From NCBI GenBank assembly GCA_041484665.1, contig JBGPIA010000003.1, positions 128,001 to 192,000 of the forward strand: 64,000 nt of DNA, in the 5' to 3' direction. The stretch comes from Candidatus Krumholzibacteriia bacterium (lineage in GTDB: Bacteria; Krumholzibacteriota; Krumholzibacteriia; JAJRXK01). This document shows, piece after piece, positions 16,423-34,011 of this stretch (its first letter is position 1; each line of letters opens with the position of its first letter). The notes below the pieces were generated by a model. It ran no database searches. It was not told where the DNA came from and saw nothing but the letters and a program-made list of their open reading frames with translations. The position numbers were made by a program, and so were the translations under genes.

Positions 16423-17901
16423 TCAGTACGTCTTGCGCATGCGTGCCGGCAGGATGGAGAGCTGCTCGCGGTACTTGGCCACCGTGCGGCGCGCGATGTT
16501 GAGGCCCTCCAGCTTGAGCAGGTCCACGATCTTCTGGTCGCTGAGCGGACGCCGCTTCTCCTCTCCGTCGATGATCTCGCGGATGCGGGTTTTCGCCGCC
16601 TTCGACGACATGTTCTCGCCGTCGTCGGTGTCGAGGCTGGAGCTGAAGAAGTACTTCAGCTCGAACACGCCGCGCGGCGTCTGCACGTACTTGTTGGTCG
16701 TAACGCGGCTGACGGTGGACTCGTGCATGCCGATACGATTGGCCACCTGCTGCAGCGTGAGCGGCTTGAGCGCCACCGGCCCCTTGTCGAAGAATTCCCG
16801 TTGCTCGTCCACGATGCACTGCATCACCTTCACGATGGTGCGGCGACGCTGCTCGATGGTCTGGATGAGCCACTTGGCGGAATTGAGGCGCCCCATGATG
16901 AACTCGGCCGTGGCCTTGTCGCCCTCCACGCGACTGCGGTTCAGCTCGTCGCGGTAGGCGCGGCTCACGCGCAGGCGCGGGATGTTGCTGTCGTTGAGAT
17001 AGACGATGTACTCGCCGTCGACCTTCTCCACGACCAGGTCGGGCACCACGTACTTGGCGTTCTCGGAGAAGGTGGCCAGGCCAGGTCTCGGGTCGAGGTG
17101 GCCGATCTGCTGGGCGATCTCCTGCACCTCCTGGGTGCTGATCTTGAGCTCCTTGGCGATCTCGTTGAACTTGCGGCTCTTCAGCGAGTCGAAGTGGTCC
17201 CGCACTACCTCCGCCGCCAGGGAGTCGGTCTCCCCGCGCGCGTCCAGTTGCAGCAGCAGCGCCTCCTGGAGGTTGCGCGCGGCGATGCCGGGCGGGTCGA
17301 AACTCTGGATCACCTTCAGGACGGCTTCCACGCGGGCGACGTCCACCTCGAAGGTGCGGGCGACCTCCTCCACGTCGCAGGTGAGGAAGCCATCGGTGTT
17401 CAGCGAGCCGATGACGTACTCGCCGATCTGCAGATCGAGCTCGTCGTCGAGGGTGAGGCGCAGCTGCTTGAGCAGCTGCTGGTAGCCGCTCTCCTGCGCC
17501 ACGGCCACGCGCTCGAACCGCTCGTCGAGCTCCTCGTGCTCCTGCTCGTAGGCCTGGCCGCTGAAGCCATCGTTGAAATAGTCGTCCCAGTCGACGGGGT
17601 CCTCGGGCTCCTGCGGCTCGGGGGCCTCGGCGGCCGCCTCGGGAGTCTGCTCCTCCTCGGCGCCAGCGCCGTTCTCAGACGGCTCGGCCTCCCGCTCCCG
17701 CTCCTGATCCTGATCCGGCTCATCCTCTTCTGACGGATCGATCTCCTCGAGCAGGGGGTTCTGTAGGACCTCCTCCTTGAGGATCTGCTCCAACTCGAGG
17801 GTGGGGACCTGCAGCAGCTTGAGCGCCTGCTGCAACTTGGGCGTCATGACCAGACGCTGCTGCTGGCGCATCTGCGTGGATATGGTCTGCTTCATCTCCA
17901 T
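16423..17901 (-). CDS. rpoN: RNA polymerase sigma-54 factor
   Basis: Q-rich region I (MTPKLQQALKLLQ), HESTVSR, RpoN box ARRTVAKYRE. Confidence 0.98.
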   Translation of the reverse strand: MEMKQTISTQMRQQQRLVMTPKLQQALKLLQVPTLELEQILKEEVLQNPLLEEIDPSEEDEPDQDQEREREAEPSENGAGAEEEQTPEAAAEAPEPQEPEDPVDWDDYFNDGFSGQAYEQEHEELDERFERVAVAQESGYQQLLKQLRLTLDDELDLQIGEYVIGSLNTDGFLTCDVEEVARTFEVDVARVEAVLKVIQSFDPPGIAARNLQEALLLQLDARGETDSLAAEVVRDHFDSLKSRKFNEIAKELKISTQEVQEIAQQIGHLDPRPGLATFSENAKYVVPDLVVEKVDGEYIVYLNDSNIPRLRVSRAYRDELNRSRVEGDKATAEFIMGRLNSAKWLIQTIEQRRRTIVKVMQCIVDEQREFFDKGPVALKPLTLQQVANRIGMHESTVSRVTTNKYVQTPRGVFELKYFFSSSLDTDDGENMSSKAAKTRIREIIDGEEKRRPLSDQKIVDLLKLEGLNIARRTVAKYREQLSILPARMRKTY

Positions 17902-27320: not shown

Positions 27321-27863
27321 TTACAGCTTGATCAGGCTGAGGAACTCGTGGCGCGTGGCCTGGTTGGCCCGGAAGTCGCCGAGCATCTCACTGGTCAGCG
27401 CCTGGCTGTTCTGCTTTTCCACCCCGCGCATCATCATGCACAGGTGCTGGGCGCGCATCACCACGGCCACGCCCTTGGGGTTGAGGTGCTGCTCCAGGCA
27501 CTGGGCGACCTCGCTGGTCAGGCGCTCCTGCACCTGTAGCCGCCGCGCGAAGACCTCCACGATGCGGGCCAGCTTGCTCAGGCCGATGATCTTGCCATCG
27601 GGGAGGTAGGCTACGTGCGCGCGGCCGAAGAACGGCAGCAGGTGATGCTCGCACAGGCTGAAGAAGTCGATGTCGCGCACGACCACCATCTCGCGATTGT
27701 CCGACTCGAACACCGCGCCGTTGATCTCGTCCTCCAGGTCGGCCCGGTAGCCGGCCGTCAGGAATGCCATCGACTTGGCGACGCGCTCGGGCGTTTTGAG
27801 CAGCCCCTCGCGCTGCGGGTCCTCGCCGAGCTCGCGCAGCATCTGCCGGATGAGCTCCTCCAT
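27321..27863 (-). CDS. folE: GTP cyclohydrolase I
   Basis: [36 protein letters not shown]. Confidence 0.97.
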
Positions 27864-27866
27864 GGA

Positions 27867-28346
27867 TCACCTGCCTGTCGTCTCGAAGCGGTTGTTGCGC
27901 GTCTCCAGCACGTGGAGGCGGACCAGCCGCGCGCCGTCCGGCAGGCGCGGCGCGATCCAGCTCCAGAAGACACGCGCAAGGTTCTCACCGGTGGTCACGA
28001 CGTCGATCACGTCGTTGAGGTTGTAGTGATCGACGCGCATCAGCAGATGCTCGTGGACCAGTGCGTCGAGCTCGGCGCGGCCGATCAGCAGGCCCGTGCG
28101 CGGGTCCGCAGCGCCCTCGAGGGTCACCGCGATCTCGTAGTTGTGGCCGTGCCCGCCCGGCCGGCTGCACTTGCCGAAGACACGGGTATTCTCCGCGTCG
28201 CTAAGCCGCGCGCTCACCAGGCGGTGCGCCGCCTCGAAGCGGTAGACGCGCGTCAGGCGTACCGTCGGCGCGAAGGCAGCCACCGCAGGAGTTGTCATGG
28301 ACGGGCGCGCCGCGGGGACGCCCAACGGCCGCGCTTGCCCGCTCAT
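27867..28346 (-). CDS. 6-pyruvoyl-tetrahydropterin synthase family protein, copy 2 (C-X5-HGH)
   Basis: FEAAHRL, FGKCSRPGGHGHNY, TTGENLA, ETRNN. Confidence 0.9.
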   Translation of the reverse strand: MSGQARPLGVPAARPSMTTPAVAAFAPTVRLTRVYRFEAAHRLVSARLSDAENTRVFGKCSRPGGHGHNYEIAVTLEGAADPRTGLLIGRAELDALVHEHLLMRVDHYNLNDVIDVVTTGENLARVFWSWIAPRLPDGARLVRLHVLETRNNRFETTGR

Positions 28347-28780
28347 CCCTCGCCTCCGCCGGCTTCGGCGTAGAGATCCTCGCTCTCCCACACGCGCACG
28401 CGCAGCAGCCGCGCGCCTTGCAGCTGCGCCGCCAACGGACGTAGCTCGGCCATCACATGGAGCGCCAGATTCTCACAGGTGGGAACCACGGTCCTGAAGT
28501 GGGGGACATCGAGGTTGAGGAATGTGTGGTCCAGCGGCTGGACGACGCGCTCCTTGAGCAGGCGATCGAGGTCGGCCAGGTTCATGACCATCCCAGTGAC
28601 CGGATCGACCGCGCCCTCCAGGGTGACGTCTACGCGGTAATTGTGGCCGTGGCCGTGCGGAGAATTGCAGGCGCCGAAGACGCGGCGGTTCTCCTCGTCC
28701 GACAGTGCGGGGGTGTGGTAGCGGTGCGCGGCGGAGAAGCGCACCGTGCGCGTGATGCGGGCGGTCGTGGGGAGGGTCAC
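28343..28780 (-). CDS. 6-pyruvoyl-tetrahydropterin synthase family protein, copy 1
   Basis: FSAAHRY, FGACNSPHGHGHNY, LDHTFLN, PTCENLA; GTG start with AGGAG. Confidence 0.92.
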   Translation of the reverse strand: MTLPTTARITRTVRFSAAHRYHTPALSDEENRRVFGACNSPHGHGHNYRVDVTLEGAVDPVTGMVMNLADLDRLLKERVVQPLDHTFLNLDVPHFRTVVPTCENLALHVMAELRPLAAQLQGARLLRVRVWESEDLYAEAGGGEG

Positions 28781-29009: not shown

Positions 29010-29741
29010 TCAAGCCAGACCGATGCCGCCGTCCACGTTGAGCACGGCGCCGGTGGTCCAGCCCGAGCGGTCGCTGGCGAGGAAGAGGATCGCGTCCGCG
29101 ACCTCCTCGGCGCGGCCAACACGGCCCAGCGGGTGCATGGGCGCCATGGCGTCCAGCCGTCCGCGGTCGGAATGGATCGGGGTGTCGACCACGCCCGGCG
29201 CGACCGCGACGACACGGATGCCATCCTTGGCCCACTCCAGCGCCAGGCATTGCGTCAGCGACAAGAGCGCGGCCTTGCTGGCGCTGTAGGCAGCGGTCCC
29301 GGCCACCGGGCGCTGCGCCAGGTTGGTGAGGACGTTCACGATGACGCCGTGGCCCGAACGCTTCAGGTCGATGTAGGCCTCGCGACAGAGCAGGAACGGG
29401 CCGGTCGAGTTGACCGCGAGATGCTCCTGCCATGACTCGAGAGTGCACGCAGCGGCGGGCGCCGGCTGGAACAACCCCGCGTTGTTGACCAGGACGTCGA
29501 GGCCGCCCAGCTGGTCGCGGCAGGCGGCAACGAGTCGCGCGACGTCTTCTTGCTGCGTGATGTCCGCGCCGACGGCGAGTGCGCGCCCACCCGCCTGCTC
29601 GATGTCGGCGGCCATCGCCGCGAGCGGCTCGCGCCGGCGTCCCGCGAGCGCCACGCGGGCGCCTTCGCGCGCAAACGCGCGCGCCGCGGCTGCGCCAACG
29701 CCGCTGCCGGCGCCCGTGATCAATGCAACACGGCCGTGCAA
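29010..29741 (-). CDS. Short-chain dehydrogenase/reductase
   Basis: TGAGSGVG, NNAG, YSASK, NVDGG; TTG start with GGAGG. Confidence 0.93.
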   Translation of the reverse strand: MHGRVALITGAGSGVGAAAARAFAREGARVALAGRRREPLAAMAADIEQAGGRALAVGADITQQEDVARLVAACRDQLGGLDVLVNNAGLFQPAPAAACTLESWQEHLAVNSTGPFLLCREAYIDLKRSGHGVIVNVLTNLAQRPVAGTAAYSASKAALLSLTQCLALEWAKDGIRVVAVAPGVVDTPIHSDRGRLDAMAPMHPLGRVGRAEEVADAILFLASDRSGWTTGAVLNVDGGIGLA

Positions 29742-29911
29742 TGTAGGCCTCCATTCCGCCGGAATATGGGGCTCTTGGCGCAGCGGGCTACGCGCCCTCC
29801 ATCAGGCCGGCCCGCGGGACGTCAGCGCCATCGTTCCCCGTCTTGCCCCCGCCTGCCTCGCCATCCCCGGAAAAGACCCCCGCTTGGGGCGGGAGGGGGC
29901 CATTCGGTCGC

Positions 29912-29927
29912 GGGCACGGCCATTGCT
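29912..29927 (+). promoter_or_regulatory. Putative sigma-54 -24/-12 promoter
   Basis: GGGCACGGCCATTGCT versus consensus TGGCACGNNNNTTGCW; exact GG-N10-GC spacing. Confidence 0.6.
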
Positions 29928-29937
29928 GAATTCGCCC

Positions 29938-30085
29938 TTGCCTACGCCTTGCTTCGCCGGAGGGCGGAGTGAAGCGGTTCTGAGATCGAGCCGTGTCTGC
30001 CACGAAAGTCGTCCCCCCCAGAGATCGGGTGGCAGATGTCGATCGAAGAGCCGTCTGAGCTTCGTCCCTCCGGCAATTTCTTTTC
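29938..30085 (+). ncRNA. Candidate structured small RNA (long irregular hairpin with U-rich 3' tail), family not recognised
   Basis: Nested helices 29956-29970/30059-30074, 29975-29981/30047-30053, 29984-29989/30039-30044 and 29995-30003/30029-30037; G-U pairs and tandem GA mismatches favour +; followed by AATTTCTTTT; no credible protein ORF. Confidence 0.55.
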
Positions 30086-30445
30086 GGGCTGAGCGACCGC
30101 CGCGGTCGAAGACCGCTCGAGTCGCAACGGCGCGCCACCGCGGGACGACCGGCCGCTGCTCCGCCCTGGTCCCGTGCGCACCGCACCCAGATCCCTGCTC
30201 TCCCACTATCGAGCCGCGATCGCCGGCTGTCGATCCCCGGGCGGCCATCCGCTGGATCGCCCGCGATTGCCGGCAGCTGGAGACGCGCTGAGGGGGCCGC
30301 GGCGTTTGCCGTCCAACGGACGCTTGCCTTTCTCATCCCGTCAAGCCACCCTGACTGGGTGCGCGGCCCCACGCTGCAATGCAGTCCGCGCCCCCTGCAG
30401 CGCGCGCACCGTCGGCAGGCTCGATGAGACTGCCGCGTTTCTCCC

Positions 30446-31238
30446 ATGACGACCTCGATGCAGCCGCTCAAGAGCTTGGAGCCACGCTCCCCCGGCCGGC
30501 GGGCAAGCGGCGCGGGCCCCGACCTCTCGGTCGTCGTCCCCTGTCTCAATGAAGCCGAATCGCTGCGCGAGCTCGTGCGGCGTCTGGGCCAGACGTTTCC
30601 CGTGGGCGGACCGATCGCGGCGGAGTTCCTGGTGGTCGATGACGGCTCCGCCGACGCGACGCCGCGGCTGTTCCGCGAACTGCAAGCGCGGGAGCCGCGT
30701 CTGATTCCGGTGATCCGCCCACAGCGCGGGGGGCCAGACCGCTGCGCTTTGGTCAGGATTGACCCGGGCGCCTGGCCGCTACATCGCCCAGCTCGACGGT
30801 GACCTGCAGAACGATCCGTCCGATCTCCCGCGCATGCTGGAGTTGGCTCGGCAGGGTCACGACGCCGTCCTGGGCTACCGCGAGCAGCGGTACGACCGGC
30901 CCGCGCGCCGCACCGCCAGCTGGATGGCGAACGCGATCCGCCGCGCCGTACTCCACGATCACATCCGCGACATCGGCTGCTCTACGCGCGTCGTGCGACG
31001 CGAGGCGATGCTCGCGCTGTCTCCCGTCCCCAATCTCAACCGCTATCTGCCGGCCCTGTTGGAGAGATCGGGCTGGCGGATCGTGCAGGTCCGAGCGATC
31101 CACCACCCGCGCCTGTGTGGACGGAGCAAGTACGACAACCTGCGACGCGGGCTGCAGGGGATCGTCGACCTGATCCGCATGGCGCGGCTGGCGGCGCAGC
31201 ATGCCCGGCAGGCGGAATCGAGGACCCATGGTGTTTGA
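30446..31238 (+). pseudogene. GT2 polyprenol-phosphate glycosyltransferase (ArnC/DPM1-like), split by a +1 frameshift in a G6 run
   Basis: SVVVPCLNEA and VVDDGS.D in one frame; GQTAALWSG...LDGDLQNDP in the next; removing one G at 30728-30733 joins them. Confidence 0.8.
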
Positions 31239-31503
31239 CGCTTGGAAGTGGCTGGGCCTGGCGGCCCAGGTGGTGTTCGCCTCCCGCTTCGCCGTGCAGT
31301 GGCTGGTCTCCGAGGCGCGCGGCCAGAGCGTGATCCCAACCTATTTCTGGTGGGCGAGCATCCTGGGTGCGGCGGCGTTGTTGGCCTACGCCATCCACAT
31401 CCACGATCCGGTCTTCATCCTGGGACAGTCGTTCGGGATGCTGGTTTACGTGCGAAACCTCACGCTGCGCCGCCAGCGGACCGACCCCCAGACCACCACA
31501 TGA
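31228..31503 (+). CDS. Lipid A biosynthesis N-terminal (LAB_N) domain small membrane protein
   Basis: GLAAQVVFASRFAVQWLVSE...SVIPTYFW..S..G...LLAYAI...DPVFILGQ......Y.RNL. Confidence 0.88.
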   Translation: MVFDAWKWLGLAAQVVFASRFAVQWLVSEARGQSVIPTYFWWASILGAAALLAYAIHIHDPVFILGQSFGMLVYVRNLTLRRQRTDPQTTT

Positions 31504-32931
31504 GCGACCGCAGACTGCGCGGCCCGCTGGCGCTGGCCGCCGCCGGCCTCGCGCTCTGGGTAGCGGGGCTGGGCGCCTATCCCCTGCTCGAGAGCACCGA
31601 GGGGCGCTATGCATCGATCGTGGCGGACATGCTTCGCCGCGGTGACTGGCTCGTGCCGCGCTTCGATGGGCTGCTGCACTTCGACAAAGCCGCCGCTGGC
31701 GTACTGGGGCGGCGCTCTGGCGCTGCGACTGCTGGGCCACAGCGAGCTCGCGCTGCGCGTGCCTGCCACGCTCGCGTGGCTGCTGTCCGCGTGGCTGGTG
31801 TTCCGCCTGGGGCTCGCCGCGACGCTTGACCGCCGCCGCGCGACGTGGGCGGCCGTGTTCGCCAGCTTCGCTCCGCTGGCGGTGGTGCAGGCGCGCATGC
31901 TGAGCAGCGATGTCTTCCTCTGGCCGGCGACCCTGTGCGTCTACCTCGGCGTGGTCGACGTGAGTCGAAGCGCGTGGGGGCGCGCTGCGCTCACGGGCGT
32001 GGGCCTGGCCGCTGGTCTGCTGGCCAAGGGTCACCTGGTGCTCTTCTGGACGATCTCCGCGCTGCTGGTGTGGGCGGGCTGGCAGCGGCGGTGGCGCGCG
32101 GCCGGCGTGCTTGGCCATCCGCACGCGCTGGTGCTGGGGCTCGGGGCCGGGCTGCCGTGCTATGTGATCGAGGCGCTGCGCCACCCACAGCTCGTGCGAT
32201 TCTGGCTGGGACGCGAGACCGCCGGACGATACCTGAGCGGCGTCCATGGCCGCCACGAGCCGTGGTGGTACTTCGCCGCAATCCTGCCCGCGATGGTGCT
32301 GCCGTGGTTGCCGGAGATCGTGCGGGGCGCAGCGCGCGCGCTGCGCCGGGAAGCCACCGAGGCCGCCGCACAGGCCAGGCTGTGGGTGCTGTGGGCCGGT
32401 CTTCCGCTGGTGCTGTTCAGCGTCAGCGGCTCGAAGCGCTCCAACTACCTGATCCCGCTCCTCGCACCGCTGGCATTGCTGGCCGCCTCCGCGCTCCCGG
32501 CGCAGGCGTCGCGCCACCTGGGGATCCGCACGGGCGTGTGGTCGCTGGTGGTGCTGCTCTCGCCGTTCGTGCTGGGCGCGGTGCCCGGCCTCGCGCCTGC
32601 GACGCGCGAGCTCGCGACGGCTGCGCGGCGGACGGGCGGGCAGCTCGTGGCGTACCACGAGCTGCCCACCAGCCTGCCCTTCTATTACGGCGCCAACGTC
32701 GCGGCGGTGTTCACCGCCGTCGATGAGACACTCGATGACGCGCAGACATGCGCGCGCTGGCGGCCGCCACGCCCAGACGCTGTCGCGCCCGTGCTCGCCC
32801 ATGGAGGGCTGGTCCTCGCTCGCACGGAAGACTGGCCCGTGCTGTCGAAGCTGGCAGGTGTGACGCTCACGCCGGTGGCGAGCGGCGGCGGGCGCGTGCT
32901 GCTGCACGCGCCGGGCGCCGCGCGGCCGTGA
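31500..32931 (+). pseudogene. ArnT/PMT-family (GT-C) glycosyltransferase, split by a +1 frameshift
   Basis: EGRYA.I...M...GDWLVP..DG..HFDK, then PPLAYW in the shifted frame (extra A at 31686-31688); later LAKG, H.EPWWYF, SKRSNYLIP. Confidence 0.8.
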
Positions 32932-33050: not shown

Positions 33051-33284
33051 CTACTTCTTCTTCGCGCGCGAGTCGAGCAGGCGGAGGATCTCCCCGTCCT
33101 CCGGGAAGCGGTCGAGCTGCTTCTTCGAGAAGATGAGCTTGCCGTCAGCGTCGACCTCGAACACTCCCCCGCTGCTCTCGATCAGCGTCACGTCCTGCCC
33201 GGTGTGCTGCTTGATCTCGGCGGCCAGACCGGTCGCCCGGGGCAGGTAGTTTCAGACACCGCAGTAGGTGATCGCGATCTTCAT
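33051..33284 (-). CDS. SelW/Rdx-family selenoprotein (CxxU), 77 aa, in-frame UGA at 33254-33252
   Basis: MKIAITYCGV(U)NYLPRATGLAAEI...SSGGVFEVDADGKLIFSKKQLDRFPEDGEI; AAGGGAAG SD; Rdx motifs on both sides of the TGA. Confidence 0.93.
33219..33237 (-). promoter_or_regulatory. Bacterial SECIS element
   Basis: GGCG-A-CC-[GGUCU]-GG-C-CGCC hairpin; the G-initiated loop starts 21 nt after the UGA. Confidence 0.75.
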
Positions 33285-33318: not shown

Positions 33319-34011
33319 CTAGGGCAAGCGCGCGGGCGGTGCAAGCATCACGGGCTGCCACGGCTTCCCCTCCCGCAGGGGCTGGCCGTCACGCACCTGC
33401 AGCTCGCCCTTGGCCAGCCACTGCAACACCGTCGGGTAAAGCTCGCATTCTGCCACGAACACCCGGTCCGCCAGGGTGCGCGTTGAGTCACCCGGGAGCA
33501 CGGGCACCTGCACCTGCGCCAGGATCGGCCCGTGGTCGTAGCGGCGATCCACCAGATGCACCGTCGCCCCGGAGACGCGGTCGCCGGATGCGAGCACTGC
33601 GGCGTGCACGCGATCGCCGTAGCATCCCTTGCCGCCGTGGGCCGGCAGCAGGGCCGGGTGGATGTTCAGCACGGACAGGTCGCCCACCGCGGTCAGGTCG
33701 AGCAGCGACAGGTAGCCGCAAAGGACGATGACCTGGGCGCCGCAGGTGCGCGCCCATTGCAGCATGGCGCGATCGCGCTCGGCGCGCGACGGATGCTCCC
33801 CGCCCGGAAACGCGCGCGTCGCGACGCCGGCGTCGCGCGCGATGTCCAGCCCCAGGACGCCGTCGCGGTCACTGGCCGCGGCGACCACGCTCGCAGACAG
33901 GCGCCCCTCGCGGATGCACAGGAGCAGATTCGCGAGCGTGCGGCCCGTGCCGCTGAGCAGCACCGCGAGCGGCAGCACTCGTGCGGTCGGCCGTCGCTCA
34001 TCCCGACTCAC
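33319..34011 (-). CDS. purN: Phosphoribosylglycinamide formyltransferase
   Basis: AVLLSGTGRTL, LNIHPALLP, SGATVHLV...YDHGPI. Confidence 0.93.
   Translation of the reverse strand: MSRDERRPTARVLPLAVLLSGTGRTLANLLLCIREGRLSASVVAAASDRDGVLGLDIARDAGVATRAFPGGEHPSRAERDRAMLQWARTCGAQVIVLCGYLSLLDLTAVGDLSVLNIHPALLPAHGGKGCYGDRVHAAVLASGDRVSGATVHLVDRRYDHGPILAQVQVPVLPGDSTRTLADRVFVAECELYPTVLQWLAKGELQVRDGQPLREGKPWQPVMLAPPARLP

Follow-up and report, generated by a model that had tools for sequence, protein, structure and literature searches.

The stretch analysed here, a window of 64,000 nucleotides from a Candidatus Krumholzibacteriia genome, contains a real, rod-shaped structured RNA at positions 29938–30086. 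It belongs to a new family of small RNAs (sRNAs) that has more than 60 members and is so far confined to two sister families of Krumholzibacteriota, namely the family of the window's genome (f1; the genome is G000) and its sister family (f2). Judged from the sequence, it is close to certain that the locus encodes a sigma-54-transcribed structured RNA, and the start and strand of transcription in vivo are very likely those given below. The best explanation, to which we assign a probability of roughly 0.6, is that of a stand-alone, trans-acting sRNA that represses pilS. The original prediction for this DNA, a sigma-54-dependent sRNA with a C-rich loop directed at G-rich ribosome-binding sites, is supported in its main reading, with transcription and pairing as deduced steps, because promoter, hairpin and loop are kept in 10 of 10 f1 genomes, the helices covary, the RNA is single copy and a G-run is conserved at the start of pilS.

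Promoter and fold of the RNA

The features of the locus are as follows.

29912..29927, + strand: sigma-54 −24/−12 promoter motif (GG at 29913–14, GC at 29925–26), read from the sequence
29938..30086, + strand: predicted sRNA transcript of ~149 nt, with an 18-nt unstructured leader, a rod hairpin and a U-rich tail
29956..30074, + strand: irregular rod hairpin with 40 core pairs and a GC-rich closing helix, from folding
30004..30028, + strand: apical domain with the near-invariant AGUCGUCCCCCC(C)A(G)AGA and the open seed C30014–A30020, from folding and alignment
30075..30084, + strand: U-rich tail after the closing helix, seen in the sequence; a probable intrinsic terminator
29010..29741, − strand: divergent SDR oxidoreductase gene, a synteny marker
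27321..28780, − strand: queD-queD-folE genes, with folE as the synteny anchor common to the sister family
33319..33978, − strand: purN, the convergent downstream neighbour in the ancestral arrangement of the family
16423..17901, − strand: rpoN (sigma-54), 12 kb from the RNA locus and inside the same window

The RNA lies between the divergent SDR gene and a glycosyltransferase gene that starts at 30446 on the + strand, in an intergenic gap of 704 bp on gene coordinates, in agreement with the ~700 bp first estimated. The promoter reads GGCAC-N5-TTGC and, because the −12 GC sits at 29925–26, transcription is predicted to start at about 29938; the near-consensus −24/−12 motif and the start near 29938 that had been proposed are thus both present in the sequence. 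The string GGCA-N6-TTGC occurs 172 times genome-wide on both strands, which corresponds to a chance of ~3e-4 per 20-nt placement window. Just 5′ of the promoter, the minus strand carries a terminator-like hairpin followed by a T-run (29877–29895), which would halt antisense read-through towards the SDR gene.

The minimum free energy structure is a rod of 40 pairs formed by 29956–30003 with 30029–30074, to which five weaker apical pairs are added. The ~37 bp of nested pairing originally counted are therefore a slight undercount of a long rod that is real, while the several G-U pairs (six in this structure) and the U-rich tail behind the closing stem (30075–30084) are as described. Folding of the + strand is markedly more stable than that of shuffled sequences (z values of −4.6 and −5.0, the latter being −4.97 for 29938–30086; 0 of 200 shuffles equally stable), and far better than that of the − strand (z value of −1.85). 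The apical region 30004–30028, which had been taken as a 25-nt loop, is partly paired through GUC/GAU pairs (probability 0.63–0.71), but C30014–A30020 within it is open, with an unpaired probability of at least 0.93. Both tandem GA mismatches of the prediction are present in the RNA of the window (29971–72/30057–58 and 29982–83/30045–46), but their positions are not kept in the orthologs.

Conservation in the family of the window's genome

Orthologs are found in 10 of 10 f1 genomes at the same folE/queD-purN locus. BLAST recovered them in six of the nine relatives, a covariance model in two more and the purN neighbourhood in the last one, so that the suggested check in related genomes yields both orthologs and covariation. 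All copies lie between divergent queD/folE genes, with or without the SDR gene, and convergent purN. GGCA-N6-TTGC stands upstream of 10 of 10 orthologs at a nearly constant distance, and none of them was located through this motif. The stems vary yet stay paired, whereas the apical AGUCGUCCCCCC(C)A(G)AGA is almost constant. Both main helices are fully paired over seven sequences (126 of 126 cells), and the upper helix shows two-sided changes at six of its nine pairs. Most orthologs also have a U-tract behind the closing helix.

The C-run is predicted to be accessible in 10 of 13 f1 sequences (unpaired probability 0.88–0.97) and occluded in three (0.20–0.45), which include the copies of genomes G005 (0.20) and G007 (0.45). 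Copies of the genus g4 type (L052, L070, L092) carry G-rich arms that could close over the C-run of the same molecule, and those of their genomes that were checked have no pilS G-run; on this modelling these copies are possibly a switchable or repurposed variant.

The RNA is single copy in its genome. Dispersed copies, which would have marked it as a MITE or REP element, are absent. An exact 17-mer scan of genome contigs gave 19 matches, six of them true (all from Krumholzibacteriota) and 13 without a hairpin; a metagenome scan gave 28 matches, seven true and 21 not, which are left out of the promoter conservation because the scan itself required the promoter. Viral contigs gave 0 matches.

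A diverged counterpart in the sister family

A pattern made of promoter plus C-run matched seven of seven genomes of one f2 genus, at folE. Upstream of folE, 53 of the 65 f2 regions examined (from 65 of the 91 f2 genomes) hold a counterpart, which consists of a sigma-54 motif, a hairpin with a GGGC/GCCC closing helix, an apical loop of C5–9 and, usually, a U-rich tail. The loops keep G(C/U)UCCCCCC, and some resemble those of f1 (GUCCCCCCAGAG in G020); some copies carry a side branch or a leader hairpin. The element is missing from 12 of the 65 regions, in several of them by clean deletion. An alignment of 35 short-form sequences has 94.5% of its cells paired and two-sided change at 12 of 15 pairs, a result as high in 0 of 500 shuffles, to be read with the caution that kinship inflates such tests; slid controls drop to 27–53%. 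A rule that was set on f2 and requires a loose promoter, an open C-run and a hairpin of at least 24 bp passes 51 of 65 f2 regions and 0 of 65 reverse strands. Applied to the 5.4-Mb genome of the window, the same rule returns one site, exactly the RNA locus.

Neither the nhmmer profiles built from f2 nor the f2 covariance model (R2) detects the RNA of the window. Since sequence profiles fail to link the two sets, their homology is argued from shared synteny and architecture together with a tree of PilC. This tree has 42 rows, omits G168 and G180, and groups f1 with f2 against five other families with a support of 100/99. The tree fits one origin of the RNA and several losses.

The search beyond these families was negative among the genomes and regions covered, with a sensitivity limited by first-look filters. 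Across 151 genomes, the f1 covariance model (R1) had no convincing match beyond the family, its sole match there being a plain terminator. R2 gave weak matches outside f2; among 20 of the longer ones that were examined, 10 of which came from other families, none combines promoter and hairpin, and those of 36–43 nt were judged by size to be terminators. No counterpart was found in 17 folE-upstream regions of six other families (f5 not among them).

Two further loci were noticed along the way. In G148, a sigma-54-like motif is followed by a short hairpin with a AGUCGUCC arm and a U8 tail (L130:1230–1296); it was dropped because it looks like a terminator, which it probably is, and is possibly a tiny RNA. 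In genus g44 (L127:686–813, L073), a long near-perfect palindrome lies between convergent trxB and folE.

Predicted pairing of the loop with pilS

The apical loop was paired against the start regions of all 3963 genes of our own gene calls, the target prediction that had been called for. The start of pilS ranks 2 of 3963 with the 25-nt loop, a result that precedes any special attention to this gene. With a 16-nt core that was chosen afterwards it ranks 1 of 3963. The predicted duplex of CUCUGGGGGGA with UCCCCCCAGAG comprises 11 pairs. The gene is part of a pilB-pilT-pilC-pilS-pilR-pilA cluster on contig C2, in which kinase, sigma-54 regulator and pilin were confirmed on the copies of a relative and the names pilS and pilR are taken from the cluster context.

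A run of G6–7 at the pilS start is present in eight of 10 f1 genomes with otherwise unrelated flanks, covering four of the five lineages of the PilC tree, and in 0 of seven genomes from other families; in f1, the start is preceded by (C/U)UGGGGGGA. Such a G6 is found at only 46 of the 3963 starts in the window's genome. Measured against 1500 starts of that genome, each of the eight pilS starts with a G-run falls in the top 1.2% by pairing score, whereas those of G005 and G007 are average. These two exceptions are the genomes with a predicted occluded C-run and, being close kin, count as one event. The pilS leader is itself predicted to be structured and would cost 5–7 kcal/mol to open, and its G6 run may be kept merely as a ribosome site. 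Further points against the pilS reading are that two other G-run candidates of the window's genome, pilN and a pilH-like gene, are not conserved as G6, and that no target emerged in f2. The seed fits G-runs rather than the ordinary GGAGG. Taken together, base pairing through the C-loop is a likely mode of action, and pilS its probable target in f1, with somewhat less assurance.

An sRNA that pairs with a wide set of G-run sites, pilS being one member among many or a passenger and the core role lying elsewhere, is an unlikely alternative. The f2 pilS gene is coupled to pilC and lacks a consistent G-run, and C-run loops are kept all the same in the 53 regions; the 46 G6 starts of the window's genome, and the G-run starts that are common in f2 genomes, would provide such a regulon with sites. 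Against it, partial screens reveal no second shared target, neither in f1 (47 loci from 302 pattern matches in five genomes) nor in f2, where the 50 starts examined, out of 74 with a G-run in five genomes, gave no shared gene. Moreover, the pilS complementarity reaches beyond the C-run into the family-specific AGAG flank.

Other G-runs were seen along the way. In four genomes of genus g2 (L269, L270, L271, L273), a G7 run lies in the pilM leader, ~45 nt before pilM, and GGGGGAC is found at the pilN start; by sequence these are possible further sites of the RNA in this genus. Several f2 loci (L368, L370, L375, L388, L393, L394, L402) have G6-AAC/AGC ribosome sites before signal-peptide-like N-termini, which are not shared between genomes.

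Expression and upstream control

One groundwater RNA library contains contigs with 0–3 differences over 29952–30061, which, coming from a single run with no strand information and DNA not excluded, are a hint of expression only; that the flanks have no contig cover is given no weight. One of these contigs joins 30046 back to 29962; this joint is probably a library artefact (for example, template switching) and could otherwise reflect a circularised processed form. The genome encodes rpoN and 27 strong matches to sigma-54-activator domains, and sigma-54 motifs precede pilA, pilB and other genes. CsrA is present, and Hfq was not found in the genome, which is 94% complete.

The palindrome TGCA-N3-TGCA, picked by eye from the same data, occurs with at most one mismatch upstream of 24 of 30 pilA/pilM sigma-54 promoters (shuffled mean 1.5). 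It also occurs upstream of 30 of 53 f2 sRNA promoters (shuffled mean 2.8), and in one of the 12 regions that lack the RNA. It is mostly placed 105–160 nt upstream of the promoters; in the pil cluster of G000:C2 and its relatives (L267–L286) it lies ~110–125 nt upstream of those of pilA/pilM. This box is a candidate PilR site for the phylum. It is found in five of 13 f1 sequences, where it overlaps SDR start codons; the RNA promoter of the window's genome has no box at one mismatch or fewer, the best match having two. That PilR activates the RNA in this genome is a tentative proposal.

The f2 data thus point to co-regulation with pili and the f1 data to repression of pilS, and genus g2 is the only one in which a single genome was seen to combine both features, enhancer box and pilS G-run. 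The RNA and pili do not strictly go together: the RNA-bearing G020, G066, G123 and G004 give no PilM match at 1e-30, and G030, G081 and G106 have pili and lack the RNA.

Proposed mechanism and alternative identities

In the mechanism that we propose, sigma-54 RNA polymerase and an enhancer-binding protein would start the transcript at ~29938, and transcription would end at the U-tract behind the closing helix. The transcript would fold into one long rod, which may protect the RNA and whose tip would present the unpaired UCCCCCCCAG seed for Hfq-independent pairing with G-run ribosome-binding sites. The conserved partner in f1 would be the mRNA of pilS, the sensor kinase of the PilS/PilR pair; pairing would hide its ribosome site, less PilS would be made and sigma-54-driven pilus expression would be damped. 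If PilR also drives the RNA promoter, a negative feedback loop would result. This fuller version, in which PilR and sigma-54 transcribe the RNA together with the pilus genes and the oligo-C loop represses pilS, is rather doubtful.

A decoy or scaffold function, in which the rod offers its oligo-C loop to a protein that binds poly(C) (for example, one with a KH domain) and the pilS G-run is an inherited ribosome site, is quite unlikely. Protein docking would also be compatible with a long rod that varies in sequence and carries one unchanging loop; the length of the run is kept at 5–9 C while its flanks differ between the families, and there is no universal mRNA target. These points have to be set against a conserved and top-ranked pilS complementarity, which is lost in concert with occlusion of the loop. 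For CsrA in particular, the GGA motif lies hidden within the closing helix of this RNA and the f2 loops have none, which is at odds with binding.

The view that the locus is a cis element or a mobile repeat (a leader or attenuator acting on the gene that follows, a terminator working in both directions, or a MITE/REP) draws on the resemblance of the closing helix and U-tract to a terminator and on the co-directional oxidoreductase gene that follows the RNA in f2. It is made very unlikely by several observations: the ancestral downstream gene in f1 is the convergent purN, f2 genomes that lost the element retain the downstream gene, a terminator would have no need of a conserved promoter 80–125 nt upstream of a conserved C-loop, and the single copy and absence from viral contigs do not fit a repeat.

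A divergent 6S RNA, the alternative raised at the outset, or an SRP-like housekeeping RNA is extremely unlikely, since the genome has separate 6S and SRP loci, which refutes orthology with either. The long irregular rod would suit such an RNA, and the window's genome gave no match to the Rfam 6S model. However, canonical 6S lies elsewhere in eight of the nine relatives that carry the RNA, and a profile built from relatives locates the genome's own 6S on contig C2 (C2:212232–212054, − strand, E 4e-21), where it has the same gene neighbourhood; the SRP RNA is at C2:672293–672391 (79 bits). The rod is continuous, with no central bubble, and the TTCGCCC/GGGCTGAG flanks proposed to close one, while present in the sequence, are not conserved and lend no support to a 6S-like closure. 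At the locus itself, neither RF00013 (6S) nor RF00169 (small SRP RNA) gives a score, in line with the earlier view that the RNA is neither SRP nor tRNA-like, for which no Rfam match was obtained. More generally, the Rfam search that had been suggested matched no known family: the RNA region gave only a chance IRES match at E≤10, the whole window 0 matches at gathering score, and 20 f2 loci (E≤5) and 13 further loci (E≤1) 0 matches. The mini-ORF noted in the 5′ arm (GTG 29970, VKRF*) exists in the sequence but is not conserved in the 12 other sequences.

Relation to known small RNAs

The RNA can be compared with several known systems. Qrr, GlmY and CrcZ are sigma-54-dependent sRNAs under the control of enhancer proteins, and depend on or titrate Hfq or RapZ. 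The RNA resembles Qrr in its proposed feedback on its own signalling pathway, and differs from all three in that no Hfq was found in the genome and no Rfam match was obtained. With 6S RNA (RF00013) it shares a long irregular hairpin and a single copy.

The Helicobacter sRNA RepG reportedly reads a G-repeat. Pairing of a C-rich loop with a G-rich ribosome site, in no need of Hfq, is an established mode of sRNA action (PMC12205990, PMC8383071). CJnc190 of Campylobacter, RsaE/RNAIII of Staphylococcus and LhrC have a C/U-rich unpaired loop seed, as the RNA does, and with it block translation at such sites independently of Hfq, as is predicted for the RNA. The RNA agrees with this class in having its own promoter and terminator motifs, an intergenic position and a conserved accessible seed (10 of 13 sequences). 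It has no sequence or Rfam relationship to CJnc190, RsaE/RNAIII, LhrC or RepG, and stands apart from the C/U-rich-loop sRNAs by its one long rod, single apical oligo-C seed, sigma-54 promoter and predicted pilus-sensor target.

The closest parallel is Pxr of Myxococcus xanthus, a ~110-nt sRNA with a sigma-54 promoter, an NtrC-like activator and a C-run in a hairpin loop (PMC5684412, PMC5568312). Its function is lost when one C of loop 1 is changed to A (PMC5684412), and a primer shows a GUUCCCCCC loop (PMC5568312), the same string as in many f2 loops. Its direct targets are unconfirmed (PMC11928866). Both RNAs have a sigma-54 promoter motif upstream (here as a motif only, in 10 of 10 f1 and 53 of 65 f2 regions) and an oligo-C in a hairpin loop. 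In contrast to Pxr, which has three stem-loops and is processed, the RNA here forms one rod; it occurs in a different phylum and gene context, adjoining SDR/queD/folE and purN, whereas Pxr adjoins the gene of its NtrC-like regulator. The Pxr model (RF01812) has no match at the locus at E≤10, and membership of that family was rejected on score, shape and context. The likeness in sigma-54 control, essential C-loop and unconfirmed targets suggests seeking Pxr targets at myxobacterial G-run ribosome sites.

Within the open-licence literature of PubMed Central and bioRxiv, searches returned no sRNA that feeds back on PilS/PilR or acts on pilS, no non-coding RNAs of Krumholzibacteriota and no description of the RNA reported here, which is previously undescribed. 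Its promoter, seed and specific predicted target were read from comparative genomics in a phylum without a cultured genetic model. If the proposal is true, the RNA would be the first riboregulator for the uncultured phylum Krumholzibacteriota, would join Pxr in a class of 'oligo-C loop' sRNAs that are driven by sigma-54 and recognise runs of G at ribosome sites, and would supply a direct, testable rule for the targets of Pxr, which are still unconfirmed.

Genes downstream of the RNA in the window

In the window's genome a lipid-modification cassette has been inserted between the RNA and purN. It spans 30446–32931 on the + strand (glycosyltransferase, lipid A biosynthesis N-domain and ArnT-like genes) and is absent at that place in relatives. 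The glycosyltransferase gene is split across frames (30446–30802 and 30759–31238), as is the ArnT-like gene (near 31690), through either decay or an assembly error. Further downstream, the − strand at 33051–33284 encodes an Rdx-family (SelW/SelT-like) selenoprotein of 77 aa that matches PF10262 (E 2e-20) and has a CxxU motif with an in-frame TGA. A similar selenoprotein gene lies directly downstream of the RNA in G002 (L005).
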